In this document: one piece after another, positions 25,986 to 44,810 of the stretch
How positions within the stretch are numbered: the first letter of the stretch is position 1
Layout of the letters: every line of letters starts with the position of its first letter
Assembly (NCBI GenBank): GCA_965215235.1
Contig: OZ244053.1
Span: forward strand, 1,953,649 to 2,017,648
DNA from: Terriglobia bacterium
GTDB taxonomy: Bacteria > Acidobacteriota > Terriglobia > Versatilivoradales > Versatilivoraceae
Reading direction: 5' to 3'
DNA length: 64,000 bases
Made by a program: the position numbers and the translations under genes
The notes under the pieces: generated by a model
Told to the model about the DNA's origin: nothing
The model's input: the letters and a program-made list of their open reading frames with translations, nothing else
Databases searched by the model: none

Positions 25986-27626
25986 TCATTCGAGCCTTTG
26001 AGTCACCCTTAGAATGCGCCGGGATTGGAACTCGCTCGTCTTTCCAACCTCGGTTCGAGTGAAAAAAGCCGCCGGCTCGAACTCGGGAGAAGTGATGAAG
26101 AAGGCTTCAACGCCTGGCGGATAACTCATGTCACCTTCCGAGTAAACGATTCGGGCTTCGCTGTTCAAGTAGAAACCCAAGCCATAGGCCACGTTGCGTG
26201 AGATTCCATAAACGAACAGCGGCTGACCGACAAACCCTTCCTGCTGAAGAAAGGCTGCCAACCGACGGGACGACTGAGAGGAGTCCACCTGTGGAAAAAC
26301 GTCGCGGGTCACCAGGACAATCGAAAGCCCGACGGCCAACAAGTAGCAAGCCACCGACCACCGCCGCTGGTTGCGCCAGTAGAACAGCAAGGCCGCCACA
26401 CCCGCGCCCACAAAGAGCCCCGTGGCTTGCGGGAGGAAGGATGGCGTTGGCAGGTTCAGTTGATCGGCTGCGACAGGCAGAGCGAGGCCCAGCAGCAACA
26501 CGCTCAGAGCCTGATAGAAGAAGATATCTTCGAACCAGCGTCGCCTGTCCTCCTCTTGCTCTCGCTTGAGCCAGAGTTGAACCTGGCGGGCGATGAGCAA
26601 GGCTATGGCCGGGGCCGCCGGCAACAAGTAACCGGGCAACTTCGACCGGGAGAGAGAAAAAAAGACCAGCGGCGTCAGGAACCACAGCCAGAGATAGAGG
26701 TCTTGAGCGAAGGCTCTGGAGCGCCACCGGTCCCTGGCTCGAAACAGTGCTCGGCCAGCCGGAAGCAGTTGCAAGCTCCAAGGATAGAAGCCAATCAAGG
26801 CCACTGCCGGAAAAAACCACAAAGGTTGGGCATGTTCATAGCGATCGGTGAAGAACCTTTCAAGGTTGTGCCCCAATAGGAATTCCTCAACGAACAACCA
26901 GCCATTGACCCGGTAGCACAGCCCGTACCAGGGCAAAACGACCAGCAGCAGCGCCAGCACGCCGGTAAAGGGCCTGAGCTTGGACAGGAGATGGAGTCGC
27001 CCCGTGAGTCCCAGAAAGATAGCCAGACTGGCGATTGGCAGGATCACACCGACCGGCCCTTTAGCCAGCGTTGCCACTCCCAGGAAAGCATAGAAGGCCA
27101 TCAGCAGCCCCAGGCTGGGCCGACGAGCGGCTGAATCCCCCCAGAGCCCGCCTTTACCAAATAAAACAAAGAATAAACTGGTCCATGCCACTGTCAGAGC
27201 ACCGGAAAGCAGCATATCCGTGGAAGCGGCCCTCGCCAGCGGAAAATAGAGCAGTGAAGCAGACAGGATGAGGCAGGCCAGCAACCCCTCCCGGGGCTCA
27301 CCCCGCTGCTTGCCGAGAAAATAGACACAAAACACTCCCAGGACAGCAGCTACAGCCGAAGGCAGTCGAGCGGCAAACTCGTTGATCCCAAAAAGAAGAT
27401 AGGCCACCGCGGTCAGCCAGTAATAAAGGATTGGCTTCTCCAGCCACGGCTCTCCGAAGTAGCGAGGCGTCACGTAGTCGCCCGAGACCAACATCTCTCT
27501 TGCTATTTGGGCATAGCGAGGCTCATCCGGTCCCACCAATCCCAGATCGCCCAGAGCGAAGAAGAACTGAAGCCAGACAAACGGAAGAATCAGAAGCAGA
27601 TGACTGGGTTGGATTGGCCTGGGCAC
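25986..27626 (-). CDS. ArnT/PMT-family (GT83/GT39-like) membrane glycosyltransferase
   Basis: ...LGLVGPDEPRYAQIAREMLVSGDYVTPRYFGEPWLEKPILYYWLTAV... carries the DE-x-RYA motif and ~12 TM helices. The start is uncertain (GTG about 27626). The ORF-track extension to 27746 overlaps the upstream small ORF. Confidence 0.8.
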   Translation of the reverse strand: MPRPIQPSHLLLILPFVWLQFFFALGDLGLVGPDEPRYAQIAREMLVSGDYVTPRYFGEPWLEKPILYYWLTAVAYLLFGINEFAARLPSAVAAVLGVFCVYFLGKQRGEPREGLLACLILSASLLYFPLARAASTDMLLSGALTVAWTSLFFVLFGKGGLWGDSAARRPSLGLLMAFYAFLGVATLAKGPVGVILPIASLAIFLGLTGRLHLLSKLRPFTGVLALLLVVLPWYGLCYRVNGWLFVEEFLLGHNLERFFTDRYEHAQPLWFFPAVALIGFYPWSLQLLPAGRALFRARDRWRSRAFAQDLYLWLWFLTPLVFFSLSRSKLPGYLLPAAPAIALLIARQVQLWLKREQEEDRRRWFEDIFFYQALSVLLLGLALPVAADQLNLPTPSFLPQATGLFVGAGVAALLFYWRNQRRWSVACYLLAVGLSIVLVTRDVFPQVDSSQSSRRLAAFLQQEGFVGQPLFVYGISRNVAYGLGFYLNSEARIVYSEGDMSYPPGVEAFFITSPEFEPAAFFTRTEVGKTSEFQSRRILRVTQRLE

Positions 27627-27663
27627 GGTGATTCGGGAAGGACGATGCTGGCTGGACGTTCGG

Positions 27664-27852
27664 TTAGTAATAGTCCGAACAAGACATGTAGTACCCGCAC
27701 TTGGGACAGCGGAGCTTGCAGTGGTCGGGCTGCAACTCGAGACCACATTGAGGGCAGAACAGGCAAAGGGCCTTTTTCTCGGTCCGAGAGGCTTGAATAC
27801 GTTCCCCGGACGGTCTGGCCTTGTGAGGGTTTGTGGAAGAGAAGGAATTCAA
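27664..27852 (-). CDS. Possible small zinc-ribbon protein
   Basis: A 62-aa ORF with CPQCG-x13-CPKCG (two CxxC pairs) between trxA and the arnT-like gene. TTG start and no clear SD. Confidence 0.3.
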   Translation of the reverse strand: MNSFSSTNPHKARPSGERIQASRTEKKALCLFCPQCGLELQPDHCKLRCPKCGYYMSCSDYY

Positions 27853-31814: not shown

Positions 31815-32204
31815 GAGGCCAACCCGAGTACCCATCCATTCGGACGGGCCCCCTGCACTCACCGAAAGATCACATTGAAATGGCATGACGAACCCTGCCC
31901 GCCATCGAAGGGTTCATAAGGTCACCTTGTGGATTCTTGATCCAGGCACTTTGGGGCGCCCCAGGTCACTCCCAACCCGAGCCCTATGCGCCCCGATCAT
32001 TGAAGTAGTGAAAGATCGCATCGACTTCCTGGAAAACGTCCCCATTTCAGTGAATTCCGCTCTTCGGTGTTGATTCGTGGGCTCCAAAGTCAGGACTACC
32101 TTGAGCATTGGTTATGCCTGTTCCGTTCGCCCATCCTCACGCTGCTTCGTCGAGCGAGGATCGAGAAGTGTGGGATGCAAATGCCGAAGCAGGATGAAAC
32201 CGCG

Positions 32205-33200
32205 CTAGACAACTCCAGCCGCACGGAGTTGCCGATGGATCTGGTGCGCCTTTGAGTTCTGCGATTGCAGATAGAACCAGGCAGGAAATCGCGCCCGAGA
32301 GAGCGCGTAGCCGAAACTTTCACAAAAAACCTTCAGATAGGGCCTGTTTTTAAGAGCTCCTTCCATGACCGCCCTGATGCCCTGATCCAGTTTGTCAATA
32401 CCGGTACTGATACCTTTGTGGGGCTTGGCCAACCTGGGATCAAAAATCAATTCCACCCACCGCGTCATCTCATTCGACAAAACGTCCAGTGTCAGATCCT
32501 GCGGCACCAGATAAGCCTTGCGCTGTTGAATGTTGTTGAAAAAATCACGAAACGTTGTTCCTTGAGCCAGGGTATAAGCCTTGCCCACGTCTCCCATATG
32601 AGTGTCCGTGGTGGCTACCACGCCTTTGCCAAATTTCTCGGCAAGGACCATCGCCAAGGCATTCCTTTGCTGCACGCGGTGCATGTTGTATTCGACCACG
32701 GGGAATTGTTCAATCAGCCATGGAATGGCGGAATAGTTGGGTTCCTCGTGAGGTTCAAACCAGAAGGGATGATTATAGACATGGGGAAGATCGTTGGATC
32801 GCAAATAGGACAGAAAAGACTCCACGCAAGCCTCGTCTTGAGCGATCCGCTCCAGTTCGTGGAAATGTCTCCGATTCAGAAGGTAAACGTTTACGTGGAT
32901 GGTATGCCTGACCTGAGGGTCCTTGATCTTGATCTCGACTCCCGGCACCAGATCTTCCCGGTCCCACCCGATCAGGCCATAGGCATCCATCGTGTCGTAG
33001 TCCGTGAAGGTGACAAAGCGCATTCCAAGTCTCCTGGCTTTTTGGTAGAGGGCCTCGGGATGAAGCCAGGGTGCTTTGACGACGTCGTGGGAGCAGTTTG
33101 TATGGACATGAAGATCAGCAGATCCCCAGCCGCGTTCAGTGAATTGACGTGCTTCAGCAGTTGAGCAGATGTTTCCAACCGGGTGTTTTTTGCGCCTCAT
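32205..33200 (-). CDS. PHP-domain (polymerase/histidinol-phosphatase-like) metal-dependent phosphoesterase
   Basis: ADLHVHTNCSHD...HPF... His-rich PHP motifs. GGGAGG RBS before the ATG at 33200. Its start overlaps the upstream GT4 stop (ATGA). Confidence 0.7.
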   Translation of the reverse strand: MRRKKHPVGNICSTAEARQFTERGWGSADLHVHTNCSHDVVKAPWLHPEALYQKARRLGMRFVTFTDYDTMDAYGLIGWDREDLVPGVEIKIKDPQVRHTIHVNVYLLNRRHFHELERIAQDEACVESFLSYLRSNDLPHVYNHPFWFEPHEEPNYSAIPWLIEQFPVVEYNMHRVQQRNALAMVLAEKFGKGVVATTDTHMGDVGKAYTLAQGTTFRDFFNNIQQRKAYLVPQDLTLDVLSNEMTRWVELIFDPRLAKPHKGISTGIDKLDQGIRAVMEGALKNRPYLKVFCESFGYALSRARFPAWFYLQSQNSKAHQIHRQLRAAGVV

Positions 33201-34412
33201 TGTACCTCCCTCGTTTGCATTTTTGTGAGACCCACCTGTTGCTGAGATTGAGTGGACCGACTGCAACGGACCATTTCCTGATAATCCGCAAACAACCTTT
33301 TGAATACCGCCTGCCAAGTCCGGCTGACCGCCGCTTTTCTTGCCTTGTCAGCCATGATGCGACGATCTTCCGGGTGCGACACCAGCCAGTCCAACCGTTG
33401 TGCAAACTCACCGGGGATCCGCGTGATGAAACCATTCTCTCCTTCGAGCACCAACTCTTTGGGTCCCATCTGATTGGTGACGATGGCGGGCAGGCCCGAT
33501 GCCATCGCTTCCAGAACCACATTGCCGAAAGTGTCCGCTGTCGAAGGAAAAACAAAGACATCGGCCGACGCGTACGCCTCAGCCAAGACCCGCCCGGTGA
33601 GGAACCCTTCAAACCGGGCATTCCTCAAAGCCGCCTGCATCCGCTTGCGGTAAGGTCCATCACCCACCACCTTGAGTTGCACGTCGGTGCGCTCACGGAA
33701 AAGTTCAACCAACCGGTCGAGATTCTTTTGAGACTCGGCCCACATACAGTGCGGTCGGGATCCTGGATGGAACCCGGTACTTCGGATGAAACTTCTCGGC
33801 GTCCACGCCTCTCGAGAACAATTCTACTTCCCGGACCAGTCTCTTTTGCAACTCCACCCGAGTACATTCCGAAGAAGCCAGTAACCATTGGCATTTGCCG
33901 TAGAACCACTTCAGAAACCTCCAAATGACCGTTTGGCAACGAGCTCTCAGCCACCGTTGGGGCAGGCCCAGTTTCCCCAAGAAGCATTCTACACGAGGGC
34001 GCGCAAACTCAGGCAGCGCGGTATGGTGGCAGCCGACCACAGGTACAGGTAGCTTTAGGCGGGCGGCCGCAGCCAGGACATTGAGCCCCATGGAACCCGG
34101 AGTAGCGGCTTGAATCAGATCATAGTCTCCCCGTTGACACTGCCGGAGGATGTCCAGCCGGACGGGAAGCAGGTCGAATTCCATACCGGTGTAGTAACGA
34201 ATTGGAACATGCGGCTCGAATCGGAGTATCCTGACCGATCCTGTTTCTTCAACCTCGAATCGGCCATCTCCGTAAGTGTAGATGTCCAAAGAGAAACTGG
34301 AGTCCCGGCAGTATGCCGCCAGGTAATGGTAGGTGTTGGAGACCCTATTGATCTGGTCGAACGAATCGGTGAACACGGCAATTTTCATGGATTCCTCCCA
34401 AGGACTTGCCAC
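33197..34412 (-). CDS. GT4-family glycosyltransferase; frame interrupted at a T4/A4 run (~33712-33717)
   Basis: ORF 33705..34412 is the GT4 N-domain. ORF 33197..33745 is the Glycos_transf_1 C-domain (...FVFPSTADTFGNVVLEAMASGLPAIV...). Reading ...ALYVGRVSKE / KNLDRLVELF... across the join needs one extra A in tcAAAAgaatc. Confidence 0.75.
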
Positions 34413-34927
34413 TCATGTCATCGAAATCCTTCCGCAGATTCCAATTGGTCGTTGTTTCAGATTCCAGAGATTGAGTGTTCCGCAACATACAACCCTGTAT
34501 ATAGACATAGGCTGTAAACTCCTGGTTAAGTCTTGATTAAGTTGGTGTGTATTCTTCAGAGGGCAATCCGACGAGTGTGGCGGCCGGCGGGCAAACCGGC
34601 CAAGCTGCCTGCGCCCGGCCTTCGGCGGGGGTGAGAACACGTAGTACCGGCTGCAAGACAGCCTACGACTTGACTCGGGCGATGGAGCAGGCCGGCCGGG
34701 TCAAGGTCGACCGGCTGTCGCCGGTGGCGTGGAACACCGCTTGGGGATAAGGCCAAGCTATCTGCCTCATTCAAAACCATTTGCCTGGTTGGTTTGGATG
34801 AGTGTCTCCCTATACCCCTTCCGAACGTCATGACGGCACGAGGTGTTCAATTTTAATTGTCACTGTTCGATTAGATGGCTATAATAACAAAAATGGCATA
34901 AATATACTTTATGTCAAAATAAAGATT

Positions 34928-35209
34928 ATGGAGTCAAAACACAGACAGCGCTTCAGGGTAATCATGACGGAGAACGGCAGAATGGTGGTTCCTGCCCCCC
35001 TGCGCAACCTGCTTGGCGTTGAGGGTAAGCGTGCGGAGATTTTCTTCCATGTTCAGGGCCGCGAGATCACACTCACCACCAAGATGCAGGCGCTCAGACG
35101 GGCTCAGGAACGGCTCGTCGGGATCGCACCAACAGGAACGAAGCTCGTATCGGAAGAACTTATAGAGGATCGCCTGGCAGAGGCTCGCAAGGAATCCGAC
35201 GATGAGTAA
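34928..35209 (+). CDS. vapB: VapB-type antitoxin (AbrB/SpoVT/MazE fold)
   Basis: MESKHRQRFRVIMTENGRMVVPAPLRNLLGVEGKRAEIFFHVQGREITL is a swapped-hairpin DNA-binding domain. Its stop overlaps the vapC start by 8 nt. Confidence 0.75.
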   Translation: MESKHRQRFRVIMTENGRMVVPAPLRNLLGVEGKRAEIFFHVQGREITLTTKMQALRRAQERLVGIAPTGTKLVSEELIEDRLAEARKESDDE

Positions 35210-35591
35210 AACCATCCTTGACGCATCGGCCATCCTGGCTGTGCTGTTCCGAGAGCCCGGCGCCGAGGTGATCGAGGCCCATTATGAAGAAGCAATTATT
35301 TCGTCAGTGAATCTCTCCGAGGTTGCCGCGAAATTGTCTGACTGCGGTATGACGAGTGTCGAGGTTCAGGAGCTACTCTCGGGGCTCGGTCTAGAGGTTC
35401 GCGCGTTTGACGAGTCATTGGCCTTCGCGGCTGGCGCTCTGCGGGAAGCTACCCGATCGAGTGGCCTGTCCCTTGGTGATCGGGCTTGTCTCGCACTCGG
35501 CATTGCTGAAGCGATTCCTGCTGTCACTGTGGACAGGAACTGGGCTGATATCTCCGAAAAAATCGGTGTCGAGGTCGTGGTCGCGAGATAA
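35202..35591 (+). CDS. vapC: VapC PIN-domain toxin
   Basis: MSKTILDASAILAVLFREPGAE...VNLSEVAAKL...DRACLALG... carries the PIN acidic residues (D6, E, D). Confidence 0.8.
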   Translation: MSKTILDASAILAVLFREPGAEVIEAHYEEAIISSVNLSEVAAKLSDCGMTSVEVQELLSGLGLEVRAFDESLAFAAGALREATRSSGLSLGDRACLALGIAEAIPAVTVDRNWADISEKIGVEVVVAR

Positions 35592-35948
35592 GGCAGGCCG
35601 CGGTCAACACTTGGAGCGTCGCCCAGTTCAACGTCGTGTCGGCCCCCGCTCTTTGTGCTCTTCGCAGTCCAGATCACCAACCTGAGGCGGACCACCGAGG
35701 CTGTTTCCAGTGGAGAGCCGTGATGGCAGTGGTTCACCATTCTGACCGCGCCTTGGCGCCATCCCTGCAGCGGAAATAGTTGGCGTCAATCAAACAACGG
35801 GCGTGGCATGCCAAAGCATGGGCTGCTTTCTTGCTTCCACCTCTTGACAAGCACTTGCAAAGTACTTACAGAGGTAGGAAGTAGCCAGCCCACCACCCGG
35901 TTCCCCACCATAATGCCGGATTGTGACGCGACTTTCTTTGTGCACATT

Positions 35949-38306
35949 TCAGGGAAATTGAGAGGCTGACACCCGATAAGTGATGGAATCAGATAATCCG
36001 AGGTCGTCAACAACTACCAAACGATGCCTGCCCGGTTGCAGCGAGATAAACAGCCGTTCGTGTGCATCGGGAGCCCCTATGAGCAAGCCATTCTGATACC
36101 AGTACAGCTTTTCCGAGTGGGGACCGACCTGTGCGATCAATGGAATTTTTTGATATTCGGTGGGGGCGTCGGGGCGGACCAGATAGGGAGTCTCCGGCTG
36201 AGGAGACACGATCTTGGGCCGTTCCCGGGATGGGATGCTTACGCAGTCCTTGTTCAGCGGAGGGCTTTCCGGTACAGCTCGATTCTCGGCTCGCCACCAG
36301 GCCAGCAACTCTGCGGGATAGACTGTCAGCAAGCGCTGGTGGTAAGGTCGTCCCGTCAGACAATCGCCCGTCAACATATGGCCCGTGTCAGAGTCCACAA
36401 AGACCTGCTGGTGGTAGCGACACTGGATCAATTTGGATCGTCCGGGGAGATAGCTCGCAGAGATCCTCTCCGCACAAAACGGGCCCGGCAACTGATGACT
36501 CACGGAGCAAAGATGCAGATCTTTGATTTTCAGACCTCTATGTCGGCCAAAGTGCGCCCCCTCCGGCTCCAGCGCGCGAAACAAATCGAAAAGCAGAGGT
36601 CCGGCATGCTCAGCCCCTGAAATCCCCTTTACCCCCTTGCCATCAAAATTGCCGACCCAGACTCCAATGGTCAGGCGATCGGAAAAACCAACGGCCCAAG
36701 CATCTCGATGCCCATAAGACGTACCCGTTTTCCAAGCAACGGCCGGTACGCCGCGGGCCAGGTCCCACGCCCTCGGCAAGTCCGGCCGGCTCACTTCGGT
36801 CAGGATCCGGCTGACAAGATAGGCCGATTCCTTGGAGAACAGACTTCTTTCAATCCCATCGGCCTCAGCCAGAATTCGCACGGGACGGTGAATCCCACCC
36901 TCGCGCAAACTCGCATAGAGATTGGTCAATTCCAGAAGACTGACCTCGCAGCTTCCCAGGACAAGGGACAACCCATAGTCGGCACTGGGGCGATCCAGAG
37001 TGGAGAGGCCTCCCTGTTTGAGCAACCGAAAAAAATGGTTCAGCCCCATTCTCGCCAGGAGGCGGACGGCTGGAGCATTCAAGGAATCGATCAGGGCTTC
37101 CGCGACGGTGACCCGTCCTCGGTACTCGCCATCGTAGTTTTCCGCCACGTATCCCGAAAAATCGGTTGGAATGTCCAGCAGGTAGGATTCCGGTAGGATT
37201 CGACCCTCGTCCAGGGCCAAGGCATAGAGAAACGGCTTGAGCGTAGAGCCCGGAGACCGTCTCGCGATCGCTCCGTTCACTTGCCCCTGATACTGGTTTT
37301 CAAAAAACCCCGCGGAACCCACCATGACCCTCAGCGCTCTGGTTTCATTCTCAATAACCACCACGGAAGCGTTTTCAATCCCCTGCCTCCTCAAGCCGAG
37401 AATCCGTGAAGCCACTTGCCGTTCCGCGATCTTCTGGAATCTCCAGTCCAGAGTGGTCGAAAAGTTGGACCTGCCCTGTAGCCGATTGACGGCATACTCG
37501 GTGAAGTGCGGTGCGTGAAAAGGAAGTTTCTCAATTTGAGTGGGAACCGGCTGACGCAAAGCATCAGCGATCGCTTTTGGGGTGAATGTTCCCCGCGCTT
37601 CAAGCTGACGAAGAACAACGTTCCGGACCCGAAGGGCGACCGAGGGGTTGCGAGCAGGGTCGTATCTGCTGGGAGAGCGAGGAACAACCGTCAGGAGCGC
37701 GGCTTCTCCCGGGGAAAGTCGGTCAGGACTCTTACCGAAGTAGAAGAAGGCGCCAGCGCCGATTCCCTGTCGATTGCTCCCGAGGGGGACCAGATTCAAG
37801 TAAAGTTCCAATAGGTCCTCTTTGCTGAAGTACCACTCCAGTTGCAGCGCCCGGAACGCCTCTTGCAGCTTCGAACTTAGCGTTCTGGATTTCGGCTCTG
37901 CCAAGCGCGCGATCTGCATGGGGATGGTGGAAGCACCGGACACGATTCGACCACTTCTCCAATTGGTCCAAGCTGCCCTCAGAACGGACAATGGGTTGAT
38001 GCCGATATGCCAATAGAACCAGCGGTCCTCAGAGGTAACGATAGCCTCGGTGAGTTCAGGCGCTACCTCACTTAAAACAACCGGGTAGCGCCACTTTTCA
38101 TCCGAAGCGAGAAAGGTTCTCAAAAGTTTTCCGTCCCGATCCCGTACTATCACCGATGACGGACCTTTCAACTGATGAAACGGAAACGGAAAGACGCAAT
38201 CCAAGAAAAGGAGGACGGCGAAAGCCGCCAGGGGACCGAGGAGCCAGAGAGTTGCTCTTGGCCACCGCAATTTTGCCTTTGTCAGTAATCGCTGGATTGC
38301 TCTCAC
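35949..38306 (-). CDS. pbpC: Penicillin-binding protein 1C (PbpC; transglycosylase + transpeptidase + C-terminal PbpC domain)
   Basis: GT51 motifs (EDRWFYWHIGINP, RLAEPKSRTL), a transpeptidase STLK, and a C-terminal beta-sandwich. Its start overlaps the A2M stop by 4 nt. Confidence 0.9.
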   Translation of the reverse strand: MRAIQRLLTKAKLRWPRATLWLLGPLAAFAVLLFLDCVFPFPFHQLKGPSSVIVRDRDGKLLRTFLASDEKWRYPVVLSEVAPELTEAIVTSEDRWFYWHIGINPLSVLRAAWTNWRSGRIVSGASTIPMQIARLAEPKSRTLSSKLQEAFRALQLEWYFSKEDLLELYLNLVPLGSNRQGIGAGAFFYFGKSPDRLSPGEAALLTVVPRSPSRYDPARNPSVALRVRNVVLRQLEARGTFTPKAIADALRQPVPTQIEKLPFHAPHFTEYAVNRLQGRSNFSTTLDWRFQKIAERQVASRILGLRRQGIENASVVVIENETRALRVMVGSAGFFENQYQGQVNGAIARRSPGSTLKPFLYALALDEGRILPESYLLDIPTDFSGYVAENYDGEYRGRVTVAEALIDSLNAPAVRLLARMGLNHFFRLLKQGGLSTLDRPSADYGLSLVLGSCEVSLLELTNLYASLREGGIHRPVRILAEADGIERSLFSKESAYLVSRILTEVSRPDLPRAWDLARGVPAVAWKTGTSYGHRDAWAVGFSDRLTIGVWVGNFDGKGVKGISGAEHAGPLLFDLFRALEPEGAHFGRHRGLKIKDLHLCSVSHQLPGPFCAERISASYLPGRSKLIQCRYHQQVFVDSDTGHMLTGDCLTGRPYHQRLLTVYPAELLAWWRAENRAVPESPPLNKDCVSIPSRERPKIVSPQPETPYLVRPDAPTEYQKIPLIAQVGPHSEKLYWYQNGLLIGAPDAHERLFISLQPGRHRLVVVDDLGLSDSITYRVSASQFP

Positions 38307-41300
38307 CGTGGAACCTCAACACCAAGGGTCCCTCGTTCCCCCGTTGCACGTATGGTCTGGTTGTACATGGCTTCGGCTTGAACGGGCGGAAATCGAAAAG
38401 TTCCCGGAGTCACGGCACGGAGCACCGAGTAGATCGTCTGCCACCGGTTTGATGGGAGGTCTATGAAAACCAAGACCCGATCATCGCGAAGATCCAAATG
38501 GGCAAGGCTCAGCTTGGCGCCCGTCATCCAAGGAAGCTTTTCCGTAGTCTGGAGTCGGGGATTCTCCACCTCCAATCCGGAGGGGAGCAGACTCTGAACG
38601 ACAACATTTTCCAGTTTGCCTTGAAGGCTTCTCACTTGCGTACGGACTATGATCAAATCACTCTGCTGCACGGTACTCAGTTCCAGAGGGCTGCCGTCGC
38701 GAGAATGAAATGCCCGTTTGATCTCCAATCCCTGGTTTTGAGGGGTGAATGAGGTGTCCGTAGGCGTACCGCGAACCGATAGAAAGTAGAAGGCCGATCC
38801 GGGCTGGTAGCCTTCATCCATTTCGATACGGATCGGTGTGCCGACGGGCAGGCCAGAAAAGATCTTGGACTCTTTCGCGAAAATACCGATTTGACGCTCC
38901 TCTGCGAATACTCGACCCGAATAGGGGCGACTTTCTTCTTGCCGGCGAAAAAACTGTCCCAGCGCCAGGAAGGCAAAACCACTCTCTTGCGTACTCCACC
39001 CGCCGCTCGTCTCAGCATCCCGTGAAAGGCGTTCAACCAGACGAGGGATTCTTGAATCCTGTGGTGACGCATCCAGGAACGCCAACAACAAGAGAGCCCG
39101 GTTACGTATGGTGGAGTTCAGATTCCTGCCTGTCTGACGATCGATCCTCTGGACATCCTCCAGTCCTTGCACCATTTCATCCAAGACCTCCCGGTTTCCA
39201 ACGGCCGCATAGGCCGCCCCCAGCAAGGCTCGGGACTCGGGTTTCAGTCTGGAGCCATGACGTTTACGGACAAAATCCATCGTCCCCAGGTCAGCCTCTC
39301 CCGACCGGGCCAACACGTAAAGAGCGTAGACCGTTCGCTGGAGTTCGCCTGAACCGTAGGAACCTCGGGCCTTCAGGTCTCCGGCCAGAAACTTGAGCGC
39401 CCCATCATAGAGAAAGTTCTCAACAAAATGTCCGGCTCGACGAGCCTCCACCAGAAAGTGGGTGGCGTAGATACTGCCCCATGGGTAAACCGTGTTGGAA
39501 CCCGGCCACAAAACGAATCCCCCCTGGTGAAGCTGCATGCCGGCGATACGCCGAATACCGGCCCGAATCAGTTCACTGTGGTCGCTTTCCTCAAAGAGTT
39601 CCGGGTCTAGCTCTTTGGCCAAGTCGCTGAAATAGATCAGAGGAAAAACGCGAGAGGTCACCTGCTCCAGGCAGCCATAGGGATAGCGGAGTAGCTGGCG
39701 AAGTTGGCCCGAAAACTGGATTAGTGGCAGGGGGCTGATCTGCAGCCTGCGTCTGACGGAACTCTGGCGGAACGTTGCAGTATCCTCGGGTGGCAGGATA
39801 GTGGTCACCTCCGTGACGCCACCCGTTCGCTCCAGGGTTCGGGCTGGAAGATCGGATCGTACCTGCAAGGTATAGGAGGTTGCTGCCGTCTCCCCGTTCC
39901 CGGAGACTTCCAGACTCAGGTGAATATCTCCGGTGTGATCGCCGCTTTTCAGGCTGAAGTAGATGGTTTGTTCCGAGTTATTGGCGATTGTCAGGCTTTG
40001 AGTAGACTCTCCCGTCTGCGAAACGGGACCCTCTGCCCGAAGGGATAGTCGAAAATTCCCTTCCCTCCCGGTGTCGTTTCGAACGGTGACTGGAAGTTTC
40101 AGATCTTCCTCGAATGAAAGGAAGCGCGGAAAAGTTGGCAGGAGCACCAAAGGATTCCGAACCCGAGTGAAATGCTGAGTCGAGCCAAATCGATTCTTGG
40201 AATGAGCAACTGCCATGATCCGAAGCGCGCCTTGAAACTCAGGGACATCGAATTTGGCGACGGCTCTTCCACGAGAATCTGCGCGGATTATGCCTGACCA
40301 GAAAGTCACCGGCTTTGCTCGTCGAATCCCTTCCGTCCGAACAAACTGTGACAATCGATCCAGAACCGCGCCACCTCCTGCAGCAGACTCACCTTCACTG
40401 GGGCGACTCTCGGGCATGAGCAGCGTAAAGATGTCGTAGCTTTGAACCCCCAAGGCCAGCTTGCTGTAGAAAAAGCTGAATGGATCAGCAGTTTTCTGAT
40501 TGATGAGCTGCAAGATTCCTTCATCGACGGCAGCCACAGTGACCGTTGCACCGGGTCGGGTGCGGATTTCCACCTCGAGTGGGGAGTGGGATCTCATCTC
40601 ATCGGTGGCAACCACTTTGACCGGGAGGTGGTTCCGCTCAAGGTCGACGAAAAGGGGCACGGCTCCAAACGCTCGCCCCGGCTGTCCCGCGGGCAACTCC
40701 TGTGCCGAGCGGATCAATGTCGCGGTAATGTAGACGTTCGGCCGATAGTCGGGACGAATCGGGACGCTGATCTTGGCAGTGTTGCCTGGAAGGTTGAAAA
40801 CTCGTGAGTAATAGACTTGATCCCGTTCCACTGTGAGCCACAGCTTTCCAGGAAAAGGAGCTCTGACCTGCACCTGTGCGCTGGCGCCCAAGGGGTACTC
40901 TTTCTTGTCAAGATCCAGTTCGAGCCGGGTCGGATTCTTGATGGCCCAAGGCGAATAGCCCCATCCGCTGGCGTAAAAATCCACTTCAGAGGAAGCTCCC
41001 GTTTCGGAATCGGTCACGACAACGCGGTAGCTTCCGAATTCCGGCGGGATCAGGGTGAAACGTCCTCGGGAGTTGCCTGCAGCCAGATTCCGACTCTCGA
41101 CCAGCACCGGTTCAACCCTGGATTCATAGCGGTAGCTTCCGGAAGAGGTTTGACGCAAGACCGTGTGCCATCGGTCCCTAAAGAACTCCACCCGAAGGTT
41201 TCCGGCTGCCGCCAGACTCCCCTGCGGATTGACGGCCACATACTCCAAGCGAACCTGTCGGCCCGGCTCGGCGTGGGATTCCTCCATCTTCCGCAAACCC

Positions 41301-43825
41301 ACATAATAAGGATAGGGATGAATGCCGACCCGCTTGAGCGCTGTCACCCCTCGCCCGCCCTGTTCCTGGACTCGCGCCGTAATCACGGCTTCCAAGGAGG
41401 AGGGCACCCTGGGACCTGCAGGAAGACTGACAGTAAAAGCCCGTTTGCCGGAGTCATCCAAACGGTCTTTTTCGGTAAACACCTCACGAGCCTCCAACTT
41501 CCGGCTGGGGTTGTGAAAGACAAACTCCGGATGTGTCCGGGAAGCAAAGACGGTCGGACGTAACCATACACGGCTTTCGACCGCCAAGTCGCGGGCCGGC
41601 GCACCGAACAAATAAGACCCGGCAACTTCGCAAGACACTTCTTCGCCAACACTGTACTCCTCCTTCGCCGAGGAGACTTCGACCTTGATTCGATCAGGAA
41701 CAAACTCCTCGACCTGGAACCGATAGCTCCCGACCACATCTGCAGCGACCACCAACTCGAGCTTGTGATGACCGGTGCGGGCGTAGGCGGGAATGTCAAG
41801 ACTGAACTCGGCCAATCCGTCCCCGTCCGTCTCCAGTTTGGAAAGACTCCGCTCTCGTCCTTGCGGATCCCGATGGCGGATCAAGACCGGCATAGATAGC
41901 GGGACCCGCAGCCGTTTGTCGCGAACAATCGCGAGTCCTTTCAGGGTCTCGCCGGGGCGGTAAATGTCACGCTCTCCATACAAAAAGGCTTGATATCCCG
42001 CTTTCGAAACGGTCACGCCAGACACGTCCAATCCGGCGGTGCTGACGGTGTGACGATCAAGGAGCAAGAAGCTGTAGTCGCTTCCCCTATGCACGGTGAA
42101 CATGAAGGGTCGGTGTTTCTCCAGCGTTTCCTCCAGGTTCCCTGTCCTCCAGATGCCGTCGGTCCCGGTGTTTCCCGAGGCGATGACCTGCTGCTGGTCA
42201 CTGACGAGGTTGACCCGAGCCCGGGAAATGGGACTGAGTTTGGAGAATGAAGACACCCACACCAGAAATTCGTTACCGCTTTTCTTGGCCACGATTCCGA
42301 GGTCCGTGATCAAAAGCCATCGGTAGGAAGCGTAATAAGTGTTGGGCCGAACCAAGCCGATTCGATAGAGACCCGGATCTTCCTTCTTGACGTACTGATC
42401 GAGTTGTATCGGCGTGGAGATCAACTCGTTACGGCCGCCACCCAGGCGCAACGTCTCACGGGCAATCCGATCGCCGAGATGACGATCCATACTTCGTCGA
42501 TAACGTCCTCCATGGCGATACAGGTAGCTCTCAAAACTGAACAGGGCGAACAAGTTGTTGCGGTAGACGCGATCGATAGTCATAGCCACACGGTCCACGT
42601 TCGTGCTTTCGATCGCGACCGTTCGGTAACCGCTGGCGGAAAGAAACTCCCCCTGATGCTTGAAATCGACGTAGGGATCCAAGTCGGCAAACCGAAGCGT
42701 CTCTTTGCGGGAGTCCACCAGCACCGACTCATCGATCGCTGGCAAACCTTGACCCATAGTCACTTCGTAAGCCATGCCTGGCTGGAACTTTCCGCTCAGG
42801 GTCAGTTCATTGCGGGCCGCGGAAATGCGGTAGTCGACGTGCGGCTTCACTTGGAGGTATTGACGTGCGATGTCGGGATCGACCGGTGAGGAAAAGCGAA
42901 GACGAATGACAGAATCCTCGCGACCCGGAACAGCGGAAAAACCACGCACGGTGAGGTTCTCGTTCGAGCCAATAGGGACGGTCTTGATGAAATCCGAGGT
43001 CAGCCGAACGTTCCCTCGACTTGGACTCAACTCGGAGGATATGAACAACGTGACTTCGCGCTCCTTCTTCTGCTTGGCAAGAGGACTACTTCGAAACTCA
43101 ATGACCCGGTTCGGATAGGTCGTGTCGTAAGTGAGAGCGATGGGATCCCGTTCCCCTTTTAGTGGATCTGACAGACGCAAGTGCTTGGCCAACTCTTGTG
43201 GGGAGACCGCATAATTGAAGTTGACTCGTCCACGCAAGATGATGTGCTTGGAAGGATCCGTCAAGGGCTCTTCATAGGTCGACAGTCTCTGGACGCTGAA
43301 CTGATCTGTGACGATTGTGAAACGAGTGTCCCCTTTAAATACCTGGTTCGGGCTGATGATTCGAGTGGCTGAGAGCTCGATTTGGTATCGGGTCGCCATG
43401 GCAAAGCGACCGCTGGGCACGAAACGAAGGACATTCACCGCCTGCCATTGCCAGACTCCACGAAGTTCTGGCTCAATCAGAGCTGGATCACGGGCCAGGA
43501 TTTCTCCGACCCGCCCCTCTCCCAGTGAGCGGTCGAAAATAATGTCCAGCGCACGGAGTTGTCGCCGGTCCAAGACAACATCCAGAACCGATACCGGTTC
43601 TCCCTGAAGTTGGCTTTCATCCCAGGGGATCCATCTGGAAACATGCTCAGCAATCCATACACCGCTCAGGACCAACAACAGAAATGCCAGCACGACGATG
43701 GTGAGATTCTTCCGATCCCTCATCCATGAAAACCGGAACTGCGAAATCGGCAGTTCCCGGAGACGGCTGACAATGATGCTCTTCCGAGCCTTCAACCATG
43801 AAAACAGCGAGTGCAACTTCGACAT
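38303..43825 (-). CDS. Bacterial alpha-2-macroglobulin family protein (thioester-containing, ECAM/YfhM-like), 1840 aa
   Basis: N-terminal membrane anchor, many MG domains and an intact thioester motif YPYGCLEQ (codons at ~39662-39685, minus strand). Co-oriented and overlapping with pbpC. The alternative start at 43723 (MRDRKNL...) cannot be excluded. Confidence 0.9.
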   Translation of the reverse strand: MSKLHSLFSWLKARKSIIVSRLRELPISQFRFSWMRDRKNLTIVVLAFLLLVLSGVWIAEHVSRWIPWDESQLQGEPVSVLDVVLDRRQLRALDIIFDRSLGEGRVGEILARDPALIEPELRGVWQWQAVNVLRFVPSGRFAMATRYQIELSATRIISPNQVFKGDTRFTIVTDQFSVQRLSTYEEPLTDPSKHIILRGRVNFNYAVSPQELAKHLRLSDPLKGERDPIALTYDTTYPNRVIEFRSSPLAKQKKEREVTLFISSELSPSRGNVRLTSDFIKTVPIGSNENLTVRGFSAVPGREDSVIRLRFSSPVDPDIARQYLQVKPHVDYRISAARNELTLSGKFQPGMAYEVTMGQGLPAIDESVLVDSRKETLRFADLDPYVDFKHQGEFLSASGYRTVAIESTNVDRVAMTIDRVYRNNLFALFSFESYLYRHGGRYRRSMDRHLGDRIARETLRLGGGRNELISTPIQLDQYVKKEDPGLYRIGLVRPNTYYASYRWLLITDLGIVAKKSGNEFLVWVSSFSKLSPISRARVNLVSDQQQVIASGNTGTDGIWRTGNLEETLEKHRPFMFTVHRGSDYSFLLLDRHTVSTAGLDVSGVTVSKAGYQAFLYGERDIYRPGETLKGLAIVRDKRLRVPLSMPVLIRHRDPQGRERSLSKLETDGDGLAEFSLDIPAYARTGHHKLELVVAADVVGSYRFQVEEFVPDRIKVEVSSAKEEYSVGEEVSCEVAGSYLFGAPARDLAVESRVWLRPTVFASRTHPEFVFHNPSRKLEAREVFTEKDRLDDSGKRAFTVSLPAGPRVPSSLEAVITARVQEQGGRGVTALKRVGIHPYPYYVGLRKMEESHAEPGRQVRLEYVAVNPQGSLAAAGNLRVEFFRDRWHTVLRQTSSGSYRYESRVEPVLVESRNLAAGNSRGRFTLIPPEFGSYRVVVTDSETGASSEVDFYASGWGYSPWAIKNPTRLELDLDKKEYPLGASAQVQVRAPFPGKLWLTVERDQVYYSRVFNLPGNTAKISVPIRPDYRPNVYITATLIRSAQELPAGQPGRAFGAVPLFVDLERNHLPVKVVATDEMRSHSPLEVEIRTRPGATVTVAAVDEGILQLINQKTADPFSFFYSKLALGVQSYDIFTLLMPESRPSEGESAAGGGAVLDRLSQFVRTEGIRRAKPVTFWSGIIRADSRGRAVAKFDVPEFQGALRIMAVAHSKNRFGSTQHFTRVRNPLVLLPTFPRFLSFEEDLKLPVTVRNDTGREGNFRLSLRAEGPVSQTGESTQSLTIANNSEQTIYFSLKSGDHTGDIHLSLEVSGNGETAATSYTLQVRSDLPARTLERTGGVTEVTTILPPEDTATFRQSSVRRRLQISPLPLIQFSGQLRQLLRYPYGCLEQVTSRVFPLIYFSDLAKELDPELFEESDHSELIRAGIRRIAGMQLHQGGFVLWPGSNTVYPWGSIYATHFLVEARRAGHFVENFLYDGALKFLAGDLKARGSYGSGELQRTVYALYVLARSGEADLGTMDFVRKRHGSRLKPESRALLGAAYAAVGNREVLDEMVQGLEDVQRIDRQTGRNLNSTIRNRALLLLAFLDASPQDSRIPRLVERLSRDAETSGGWSTQESGFAFLALGQFFRRQEESRPYSGRVFAEERQIGIFAKESKIFSGLPVGTPIRIEMDEGYQPGSAFYFLSVRGTPTDTSFTPQNQGLEIKRAFHSRDGSPLELSTVQQSDLIIVRTQVRSLQGKLENVVVQSLLPSGLEVENPRLQTTEKLPWMTGAKLSLAHLDLRDDRVLVFIDLPSNRWQTIYSVLRAVTPGTFRFPPVQAEAMYNQTIRATGERGTLGVEVPR

Positions 43826-44254
43826 TTTGGATCCTCCCGGGCTGACTTGCCCCCCACCAACAGCGTCACCACGTCAGATCCTCGAATTCACCCTGGCGCC
43901 GTTTCGGGTTTCAGGTCAGATCTCCTCTCGTCCAGGCCAAGTTTCCAAAGAGTATTCTTGACAAGAAGCATAACTTAATCGCCGGTCGGATGGCTGGAGT
44001 ATTCCCATTTTTGCCTGGCGCCGGTTTGTCCACCACTGGGTCGCCCTCTCCCGTCGCAGCTTAACCGGGCTGACTACGACCGGGCGGAGCTCAGAGCACC
44101 GATCCCGGAGACAGTCGAGGACAAGGGGTGCAGCCGGCTCAAGACCAGGAGTTGGCGGACCTGAATCCCGGCGACTGCGACGCGATGATCCGGGTGCACA
44201 CCGCTTGACTAAGCGTACGCCAAGAGGTACGCCAGCTATTTCGAAGGTGGCCCC

Positions 44255-44497
44255 GTGACCACGCTGAACGCGACAGAAGCTCATTCCAAACTGTACAAAC
44301 TGATTGACGAGGCGGCCCAATCCCATGGTCGGGTTGTGATTACGGGAAGACGCGGCAACGCAGTCCTCATTGCCGAAGAAGACTGGAACGCAATCAATGA
44401 AACGCTATACCTGCTTTCGATTCCAAGAATGCGCAAGTCTATACGCGAAGGAATGGAATCCAGTCTCGAAAATTGCGAAAAGGAACTGGACTGGTGA
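44255..44497 (+). CDS. yefM: YefM/Phd-family antitoxin
   Basis: VTTLNATEAHSKLYKLIDEAAQSHGRVVITGRRGNAVLIAEEDWNAINETLYLLSIPRMRKSIREGMES... is the YefM fold. GTG start with a GAAGGTGG RBS. Confidence 0.8.
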   Translation: MTTLNATEAHSKLYKLIDEAAQSHGRVVITGRRGNAVLIAEEDWNAINETLYLLSIPRMRKSIREGMESSLENCEKELDW

Positions 44498-44758
44498 CGC
44501 GGGAGCGGTATTTCACCCGATAGGTAAGGAAAGACGCGAGAAAACTGGTTGTTTCCGGATTGAAGAAAACAGCTCACGAATGACTCGATATCATTCGAGA
44601 TAATCCATGTCAGAACCTACTACCTCATGAAGAACTGGTGGGCGATTTGGCCTGCGCATACTCCCGGCGAATCAACATACGACACCGCCTGGTTTACCAG
44701 GTTCTTGAAGGAGGAAAGACCGGTAAAGATCCTACGCCTGTGGACCCGTTACGAGTAG
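44494..44758 (+). pseudogene. yoeB: Decayed YoeB/Txe-family toxin gene (fragments in three frames)
   Basis: Directly after yefM, frame a reads ...FHPIGKERREKTGCFRIEEN.... Frame b reads ...YSRRINIRHRLVYQVLEGG (compare YoeB WSRRITEEHRLVY). Frame c ends ...VKILRLWTRYE* (compare IAACRYHY*). There is no intact N-terminus. Confidence 0.55.
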
Positions 44759-44810
44759 TTTCACTCGAGGTCCCGGGCGACATCGGTCAGGTCAGGTTGA
44801 AGCTCGGGAG

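Follow-up and report, generated by a model that had tools for sequence, protein, structure and literature searches.

A thioester-containing alpha-2-macroglobulin gene overlapping pbpC in a Terriglobia bacterium

Bacterial alpha-2-macroglobulins (A2Ms) of type I, the thioester-containing class, are encoded beside pbpC, the gene for penicillin-binding protein 1C (PBP1C), and the pair has been proposed to act as a periplasmic defence-and-repair unit (PMC5764988, PMC4498604, PMC3328433). In bacterial A2Ms, two tyrosines of the thioester domain (TED) shield the thioester, and so do a Tyr and a Met from the C-terminal MG domain. That domain also carries the RDDR and ExMY motifs, which touch the TED in the native protein and, once the bait has been cut, the bait (PMC4498604). 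In the Escherichia coli protein ECAM (YfhM), the bait/BRD segments are R923-L942 and F947-N963 (PMC4498604); ECAM is a monomer, and inhibition requires covalent linkage (PMC7864068). Type II A2Ms have no CxEQ motif, their genes belong to the six-gene mag operon, and MagB serves as their tether (PMC5764988). Here, we analyzed a stretch of 64,000 nucleotides (nt), called the window below, from a Terriglobia bacterium (assembly GCA_965215235.1, contig OZ244053.1, positions 1,953,649 to 2,017,648). With a probability of about 0.85, the A2M and pbpC genes in the window form a two-gene operon that is an intact copy of the known bacterial protease-trap/PBP1C unit.

A type I A2M gene overlapping pbpC

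The first-pass annotation of this DNA had described an A2M homologue of 1840 residues with an intact YPYGCLEQ site and a 4-nt overlap with pbpC, and both were found (Table 1). The A2M ATG is the earliest start codon in its open reading frame (ORF). At the other end of the gene, the A2M stop codon shares the tetranucleotide GTGA with the pbpC start codon, an overlap that recurs in contig L082 (85.5% DNA identity, syntenic; gene order FabH-SOD-RpsA-M19 dipeptidase-A2M-PbpC); E. coli yfhM and pbpC abut exactly with zero gap. The GTG is the sole usable start of pbpC because the sequence RLLTK, conserved with the N terminus of E. coli PbpC, begins at residue 6.

Seven Pfam families (bMG3, MG2, bMG5, bMG6, A2M_BRD, A2M, and bMG10) matched the A2M above their gathering cut-offs, while a weak bMG2 match (residues 388-500) and the TED match fell slightly under them. 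A phmmer search of the PDB returned Salmonella SaA2M as the best match (4u48; E 4e-104; query residues 307-1832) and also ECAM (4ziq, 5a42, and 4rtd; E ~1e-101; query residues 256/292-1832), and a Foldseek search with a model of the N-terminal region gave the ECAM MG0-NIE-MG1 structure as its top PDB match (4zjg; E 5e-10). Judged from its sequence, the resemblance of the protein to bacterial A2Ms is homology and not chance.

The stretch with the thioester site, LLRYPYGCLEQVTS, is contained in the first ORF, and the CLEQ motif was intact on re-inspection and lies within its conserved pocket context. Functional residues were mapped on a family alignment that included E. coli YfhM, in which CLEQ (1385-1388) aligned to ECAM C1187-Q1190 and YPY (1381-1383) to ECAM Y1183-Y1185. 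Among 14 homologues, Y1381, P1382, G1384, C1385, E1387, and Q1388 were invariant, as were E1818, M1820, and Y1821 of the EAMY motif, and all residues of the pocket and switch (Y1381, Y1383, EAMY, and RDDR) were invariant or nearly so. We also collected 80 related loci from reference genomes (L001-L080), in 74 of which the A2M ORF could be rebuilt; GCxEQ was present in every locus where the region was covered (74/74). Position x, readable in these 74 loci, was most often L (58 loci), with I (8), V (4), A (3), and T (1) making up the rest. In P0002, the closest homologue at 85% identity, the site reads YPHGCLEQ, and the second pocket tyrosine is thereby lost.

Window residues 1124-1168 aligned to ECAM R923-L942 plus F947-N963, and A2M_BRD matched the protein with 93 bits, pointing to a bait region by homology. 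Monomeric inhibition that depends on covalent linkage would be the natural expectation for this A2M.

The downstream gene, which had been read as encoding PBP1C, scored 691.9 bits against the NCBIfam equivalog TIGR02073 (PBP_1c; cut-off 494.2), and its product is 33.6% identical to E. coli PbpC over 769 columns. It has a predicted N-terminal hydrophobic transmembrane helix (residues 20-38). The GT51 motifs EDxxFxxHxG, GxSTxxMQ, and KxxE are all present (EDRWFYWHIG at 93, GASTIPMQ at 124, and SKLQE at 145), as are the transpeptidase motifs SxxK, SxN, and KTG (STLK at 354, SLN at 408, and KTG at 526).

Among described proteins, ECAM (4ziq, 5a42, 4rtd, and 4zjg) has the same MG0-NIE-MG-BRD-CUB-TED-CTMG scaffold, corresponding to window residues ~289-1832, and shares the CLEQ thioester and the YPY, RDDR, and ExMY motifs, although the two proteins are only 24% identical and YfhM contains several insertions without a counterpart in the window A2M. 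In both systems, pbpC lies immediately downstream and, from the gene layout, would be translationally coupled, and for both A2Ms the prediction is a tether to the inner membrane and a body located in the periplasm. SaA2M (4u48 and 4u4j) is the best sequence match among solved structures, and its 'lock' residue Tyr1175 corresponds to Y1381 of YPYGCLEQ; it is a lipoprotein of 1644-1647 amino acids (aa) that lacks the two extra domains described below (D1-D2), and its alignment starts at window residue 307. The type II proteins Pseudomonas MagD and E. coli YfaS share the MG scaffold and the periplasmic location, and MagD is also without a lipobox. The window A2M differs from them in having CLEQ, in being paired with pbpC, and in having no mag genes nearby; we rejected a type II identity on account of the CLEQ motif and of the neighbors, which are an M19 dipeptidase gene, rpsA, toxin-antitoxin modules, and pbpC. 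The JGI label 'YfaS' on A2M homologues is a generic COG name. The eukaryotic A2M/C3/TEP family shares the thioester domain, the bait-triggered switch, and the MG ring, and window residues 610-748 match MG domains of human A2M and TEP1, but the eukaryotic proteins are secreted and often oligomeric, have CGEQ, and lack the N-terminal MG0/NIE domains and the membrane tether.

The N-terminal segment and two additional Ig-like domains

The N terminus of YfhM, MKKLRVAACMLMLALAGC-D, contains the lipobox LAGC with Asp as the next residue, and ~40 aa of linker come behind it. In its place, the window A2M has a basic tail of 39 aa, a hydrophobic helix, and two extra Ig-like domains (residues 75-288). 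A lipobox is impossible here because the sole cysteines of the protein are C732 and C1385 of the thioester, which leaves none among the first 731 residues; the 74 related loci with a reconstructable A2M ORF (80 fetched) likewise showed no lipobox. The tail is retained in frame, with poor conservation, in homologues P0002 and P0004-6. In AlphaFold2 models built on a 44-sequence alignment (mean pLDDT 86.4 for residues 1-510), tail residues 2-22 formed a helix of low confidence (pLDDT ~60), and residues 38-65 formed one long continuous helix. Residues 40-59 (NLTIVVLAFLLLVLSGVWIA) are the hydrophobicity peak of the A2M, with a Kyte-Doolittle mean of 2.75 over 19 residues, and the 21 residues that follow are net acidic. 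The basic tail, the uncharged segment, and the acidic stretch behind it together give a positive-inside distribution of charge, as expected of an N-in signal anchor. All 60 assessable N termini, the window included, had 17-23 uncharged residues in a row behind a basic segment. The first-pass annotation had favored a transmembrane anchor over a classic lipobox; the absence of a lipobox stands, and these features suggest that the helix is probably kept as a membrane anchor, which is the likelier reading when set against a cleaved Sec signal.

If the segment were instead a Sec signal peptide that is cleaved off, the A2M would mature into a soluble protein of the periplasm, like MagD before MagB binding. 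We consider this a tentative second choice. The uncharged run of 20 residues could combine an h-region and a c-region, at least one candidate site obeying the (-3,-1) rule is present in 56/60 family members, and plain cleavable signal peptides occur in many other bacterial A2Ms. Against helix retention stands a classical signal-peptidase I site that a group of Thermoanaerobaculia/Holophagales homologues has at the equivalent position, where their hydrophobic segment ends in S-M/V-S-A/G-Y-A|F-R/K (e.g. the textbook SMSAYA|FR; loci L003, L006-L012, L016-L020, L024, L031, L038, L039, L060, L062, L067, L069, L070, L072, L076, and L080). However, no site of this type was found in the clade of the window. 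The window protein has a single (-3,-1) candidate, VLS|GV, which is placed within the hydrophobic core with VWIA right behind it. The junction in front of E60 carries Trp at -3, and the n-region of 39 residues is unusually long. Together with the single continuous helix predicted for residues 38-65, these features argue weakly against cleavage. From these sequences, the subfamily may hold both anchored and released forms.

The length of the tail bears also on the choice of start codon. Translation from Met35 (MRDRKNLTI...) would leave a short basic n-region and turn the 34-codon 'tail' into a 5' leader. Two observations point that way: the distant homologues P0009, P0014, and P0018 begin ~8 residues before the conserved D-x-K-N-L motif, and residues 1-34 are far less conserved than the remaining protein. 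We nonetheless regard this start as unlikely, since a strong GGGAGGA stands upstream of Met1 and no Shine-Dalgarno-like sequence precedes Met35, the four closest homologues retain the tail in frame with recognizable similarity, and the DNA similarity to L082 spans the tail region, starting at 43837 near the GGGAGGA.

Three kinds of N terminus occur among distant bacterial A2Ms, with a lipobox, with a simple signal peptide, or with a helix behind a long tail, and lengths of 1800-2000 aa are common. The non-lipoprotein N terminus and the extra length are fixed traits of the subfamily, are common among bacterial A2Ms generally, and do not set this locus apart. At the sequence level, the locus has each feature of the type I class except the lipoprotein anchor, and that anchor is a trait of the two characterized enterobacterial proteins, not of the A2M fold.

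The excess length over E. coli K-12 YfhM (L081, 1653 aa), previously put at ~200 aa, is 187 aa. In the YfhM alignment, window residue ~289 corresponds to YfhM ~60, the start of its first MG-type domain; YfhM 22-60 is a low-complexity linker, and window residues 66-288 are without a YfhM counterpart. The AlphaFold2 models (mean pLDDT 95.5 for residues 66-290) resolved four beta-sandwich domains: D1 (76-172), D2 (178-285), D3 (293-378), and D4 (385-506). D2 matched D3 by hhalign (probability 87%, E 4e-6), and D1 was linked weakly by profile-profile comparison; given the match between D2 and D3, the D1-D2 extension appears to have arisen long ago by duplication of the first MG-type domain. No Pfam family matched D1 or D2, even at E = 1. 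Conservation of the two domains is close to that of the remaining protein (entropy 1.43 for D2 vs 1.16 overall). An exhaustive search for D1-D2 gave 214 cluster representatives (50% identity) at E<=1e-3, and in the full-length matches the module was nearly always at residues ~40-290 of proteins of ~1800 aa. A few proteins of ~1200-2600 aa (P0206, P0214, P0241, P0245, P0262, P0173, and P0183) have instead of a single N-terminal pair 4-6 internal D1/D2-like copies around residues 530-990.

We infer that D1-D2 may act as a rigid stalk, taking the place that the flexible linker has in lipoprotein forms. It is conceivable, at a very low probability in our estimate, that the helix-anchored, D1-D2-extended proteins are a functionally distinct branch of type I A2Ms in which the stalk and the basic tail do more than tether. 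If this were true, the stalk might bring the trap to the peptidoglycan layer or offer PBP1C a docking site, the cytoplasmic tail might signal the firing of the trap to the cytoplasm, and subgroups would toggle between anchored and released forms via gain or loss of the signal-peptidase site.

Conservation of the pair and its genomic surroundings

A protein identical to the window A2M is already in NCBI/ENA (P0001). Relatives of 44-86% identity, labeled by their sources as alpha-2-macroglobulin family protein, come from Acidobacteriota, Thermoanaerobaculia, Binatia, and 'Deltaproteobacteria', and genome matches add Holophagales, Thermodesulfobacteriota, Dadabacteria, Desulfovibrionaceae, and one metagenome-assembled genome of Spirochaetia.

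Among the 80 related loci, pbpC was the next gene downstream in 48 (same strand; gap -36 to +631 nt), lay 1.5-6.7 kb further downstream on the same strand in 8, and was absent in 11 for which at least 1.5 kb of sequence was available; in the other 13, the contig was too short to judge. The pairing known from ECAM/YfhM and PbpC, which had been called conserved, is therefore seen in 56/67 relatives with room for it. With the A2M domains found, the CLEQ motif intact, the PBP1C cut-off passed, and the pairing conserved, these results support the interpretation of the first-pass annotation. The genes between A2M and pbpC were unrelated in the longer-gap loci that we examined (L001 and L021), and the few loci with interposed genes had miscellaneous ones (a C39-like peptidase, DUF2887, and a methyltransferase). 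Solidesulfovibrio and other Desulfovibrionaceae account for most of the 11 loci without pbpC (L049, L050, L054, L055, L057-L059, L063, L073, L078, and also L066; 2-10 kb downstream available), and these loci keep the thioester motif and D1-D2. In L055, a gene for a GGDEF protein lies near the A2M gene. A tblastn comparison of nine window genes with the 80 loci revealed no other conserved neighbor bar one weak rpsA match. One homologue of 2637 aa (P0045) resembled an A2M-PbpC fusion, but its last ~815 residues are an out-of-frame read-through rich in Arg, Ala, Pro, and Gly, and we rejected it as a gene-call/frameshift artifact.

Compared with L082, the window has an insertion of ~880 nt between the genes for the M19 dipeptidase and the A2M (43838-44810), and the gap between pbpC and a methyltransferase gene is ~4.1 kb (31815-35950) vs 109 nt in L082. 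The ~880-nt insert contains an intact yefM-like antitoxin gene and a degraded yoeB-like toxin gene, and the ~4.1-kb insert contains a PHP-like ORF, a glycosyltransferase gene fragment, and a vapB-like/PIN pair (Table 1). Since both inserts carry toxin-antitoxin genes, the A2M-pbpC pair is flanked on each side by a toxin-antitoxin-bearing insertion. Further away, a strong peak in AT skew (0.24 at 26-28 kb) coincides with a polytopic membrane glycosyltransferase gene; we rejected it as a sequence anomaly, the codon composition of this gene explaining it.

Scans of 35400-44400 gave 1 promoter-like site vs 2.4 expected and 8 terminator-like sites vs 9.7 expected, at or below chance in both cases. 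An Rfam search of the whole window had zero matches, and repeat searches around the A2M-pbpC operon found short chance matches only. A hairpin at 43735-43757, just 5' of Met35, was discarded, as it is not significant (z -1.2) and its U-run is not kept in L082. On neither strand did the analysis turn up a sign of anything beyond this known type of operon.

Table 1. Features of the A2M-pbpC locus and its surroundings, in window coordinates.
Feature	Residues	Position	Strand	Basis
A2M coding sequence, ATG start; type I thioester bacterial alpha-2-macroglobulin	1-1840	38303..43825	(-)	ORF, Pfam, structure matches
Shine-Dalgarno-like GGGAGGA, 6 nt 5' of A2M ATG		43832..43838	(-)	sequence
Predicted cytoplasmic tail, 10 K/R and 2 D/E	1-39	43709..43825	(-)	charge count
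Uncharged hydrophobic segment; signal anchor or, less likely, Sec signal peptide	40-59	43649..43708	(-)	Kyte-Doolittle, AlphaFold2
Extra Ig-like domain D1, absent from ECAM and SaA2M	75-173	43307..43603	(-)	
Extra Ig-like domain D2, distant paralogue of the following MG0-type domain (D3)	174-288	42962..43306	(-)	AlphaFold2, hhalign
Counterparts of ECAM N-terminal MG0 and NIE domains	289-505	42311..42961	(-)	Foldseek, YfhM alignment, weak bMG2
Bait-region equivalent; more variable core 1137-1158	1124-1168	40322..40456	(-)	ECAM alignment
YPYGCLEQ: thioester Cys1385-Gln1388 and two TED tyrosines of the protecting pocket	1381-1388	39662..39685	(-)	sequence, alignment
RDDR motif of C-terminal MG domain	1780-1783	38477..38488	(-)	alignment; invariant in homologue alignment
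EAMY (ExMY) motif of C-terminal MG domain	1818-1821	38363..38374	(-)	aligned to ECAM ESMY
GTGA: A2M stop codon (TGA) shared with pbpC start codon (GTG)		38303..38306	(-)	sequence
pbpC coding sequence (penicillin-binding protein 1C), GTG start	1-785	35949..38306	(-)	ORF, TIGR02073 score, E. coli PbpC alignment
PbpC GT51 transglycosylase domain	59-235	37602..38132	(-)	Pfam Transgly, E 4e-51
PbpC transpeptidase domain	314-531	36714..37367	(-)	Pfam Transpeptidase, E 2e-19
PbpC C-terminal BiPBP_C domain	694-775	35982..36227	(-)	Pfam PF06832, E 2e-15
yefM-like antitoxin, intact		44255..44497	(+)	
yoeB-like toxin, degraded (two in-frame stops and a frameshift)		~44500..44760	(+)	
vapB-like/PIN (vapC) pair		34802..35591	(+)	
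N-terminal fragment of GT4 glycosyltransferase		33705..34412	(-)	
PHP-like ORF		32205..33317	(-)	
PMT_2/ArnT-like membrane glycosyltransferase gene		25986..27746	(-)	

A proposed periplasmic trap and its significance

The sequences themselves establish the gene structure, the homology, the intact motifs, the domain architecture, and the conserved pairing; the topology, a retained helix, a formed thioester, the trapping of proteases, and any cooperation with PBP1C are predictions. By homology to ECAM and SaA2M, we infer how the pair may work. The A2M would be exported with its N terminus in the cytoplasm, as suggested by the 10 basic residues before the helix and the net acidic charge after it, and the uncleaved helix 40-59 would hold it on the inner membrane, with D1-D2 as a rigid stalk in place of the YfhM lipid anchor and flexible linker. 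The other domains would make a monomeric trap. A protease in the periplasm would cleave the exposed bait (~1124-1168), the cut bait would push the C-terminal MG domain, with RDDR and ExMY, off the thioester domain, and the exposed Cys1385-Gln1388 thioester, if formed as predicted, would bond covalently to a lysine of the protease. The GTGA overlap would couple translation of PBP1C to that of the A2M, and PBP1C, in the same membrane, is proposed to polymerize glycan and repair the wall.

Several further points weigh against the assignment of the locus to a working defence-and-repair unit. The TED match of the A2M scored 20.4 bits vs a Pfam threshold of 22. The excess variability of the bait core (residues 1137-1158) is modest, with an entropy of 1.35 vs 1.16 overall, so that hypervariability of the bait, when tested by family-alignment entropy, is weak. 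The adjacent pbpC is missing in Desulfovibrionaceae, which means that the partnership is not obligatory. Lastly, the defence-and-repair role of the A2M-PbpC pair is a hypothesis even for E. coli (PMC5764988). A different role would be one in which trapping is incidental and the A2M-PbpC pair either tags or tethers another target (e.g. an envelope component, as complement does) or regulates PBP1C. This accords with the bait not being hypervariable, with a subfamily found mainly in environmental Acidobacteriota and sulfate reducers and not in host colonizers, and with the absence of a reported protease-defence phenotype for the pair in PMC5764988, PMC4498604, and PMC3328433. We judge it improbable, because ECAM and SaA2M covalently trap proteases through the same motifs (PMC4498604, PMC7864068) and every switch residue is conserved in the window A2M.

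The reading as a protease trap paired with PBP1C adds little beyond what is known of bacterial A2Ms. The A2M-PbpC pair is intact, travels as a unit of two genes, and is conserved among environmental members of the Acidobacteriota and in related phyla, an occurrence that is awkward for the original view of bacterial A2Ms as tools of host colonizers and fits a general periplasmic self-defence. The main useful detail is architectural: a helix and two conserved Ig-like domains replace the lipid anchor and linker of ECAM, which is relevant to construct design and to profile models of bacterial A2Ms. Natural variants that are anchored and possibly cleaved also offer material for asking whether membrane tethering is needed for function.

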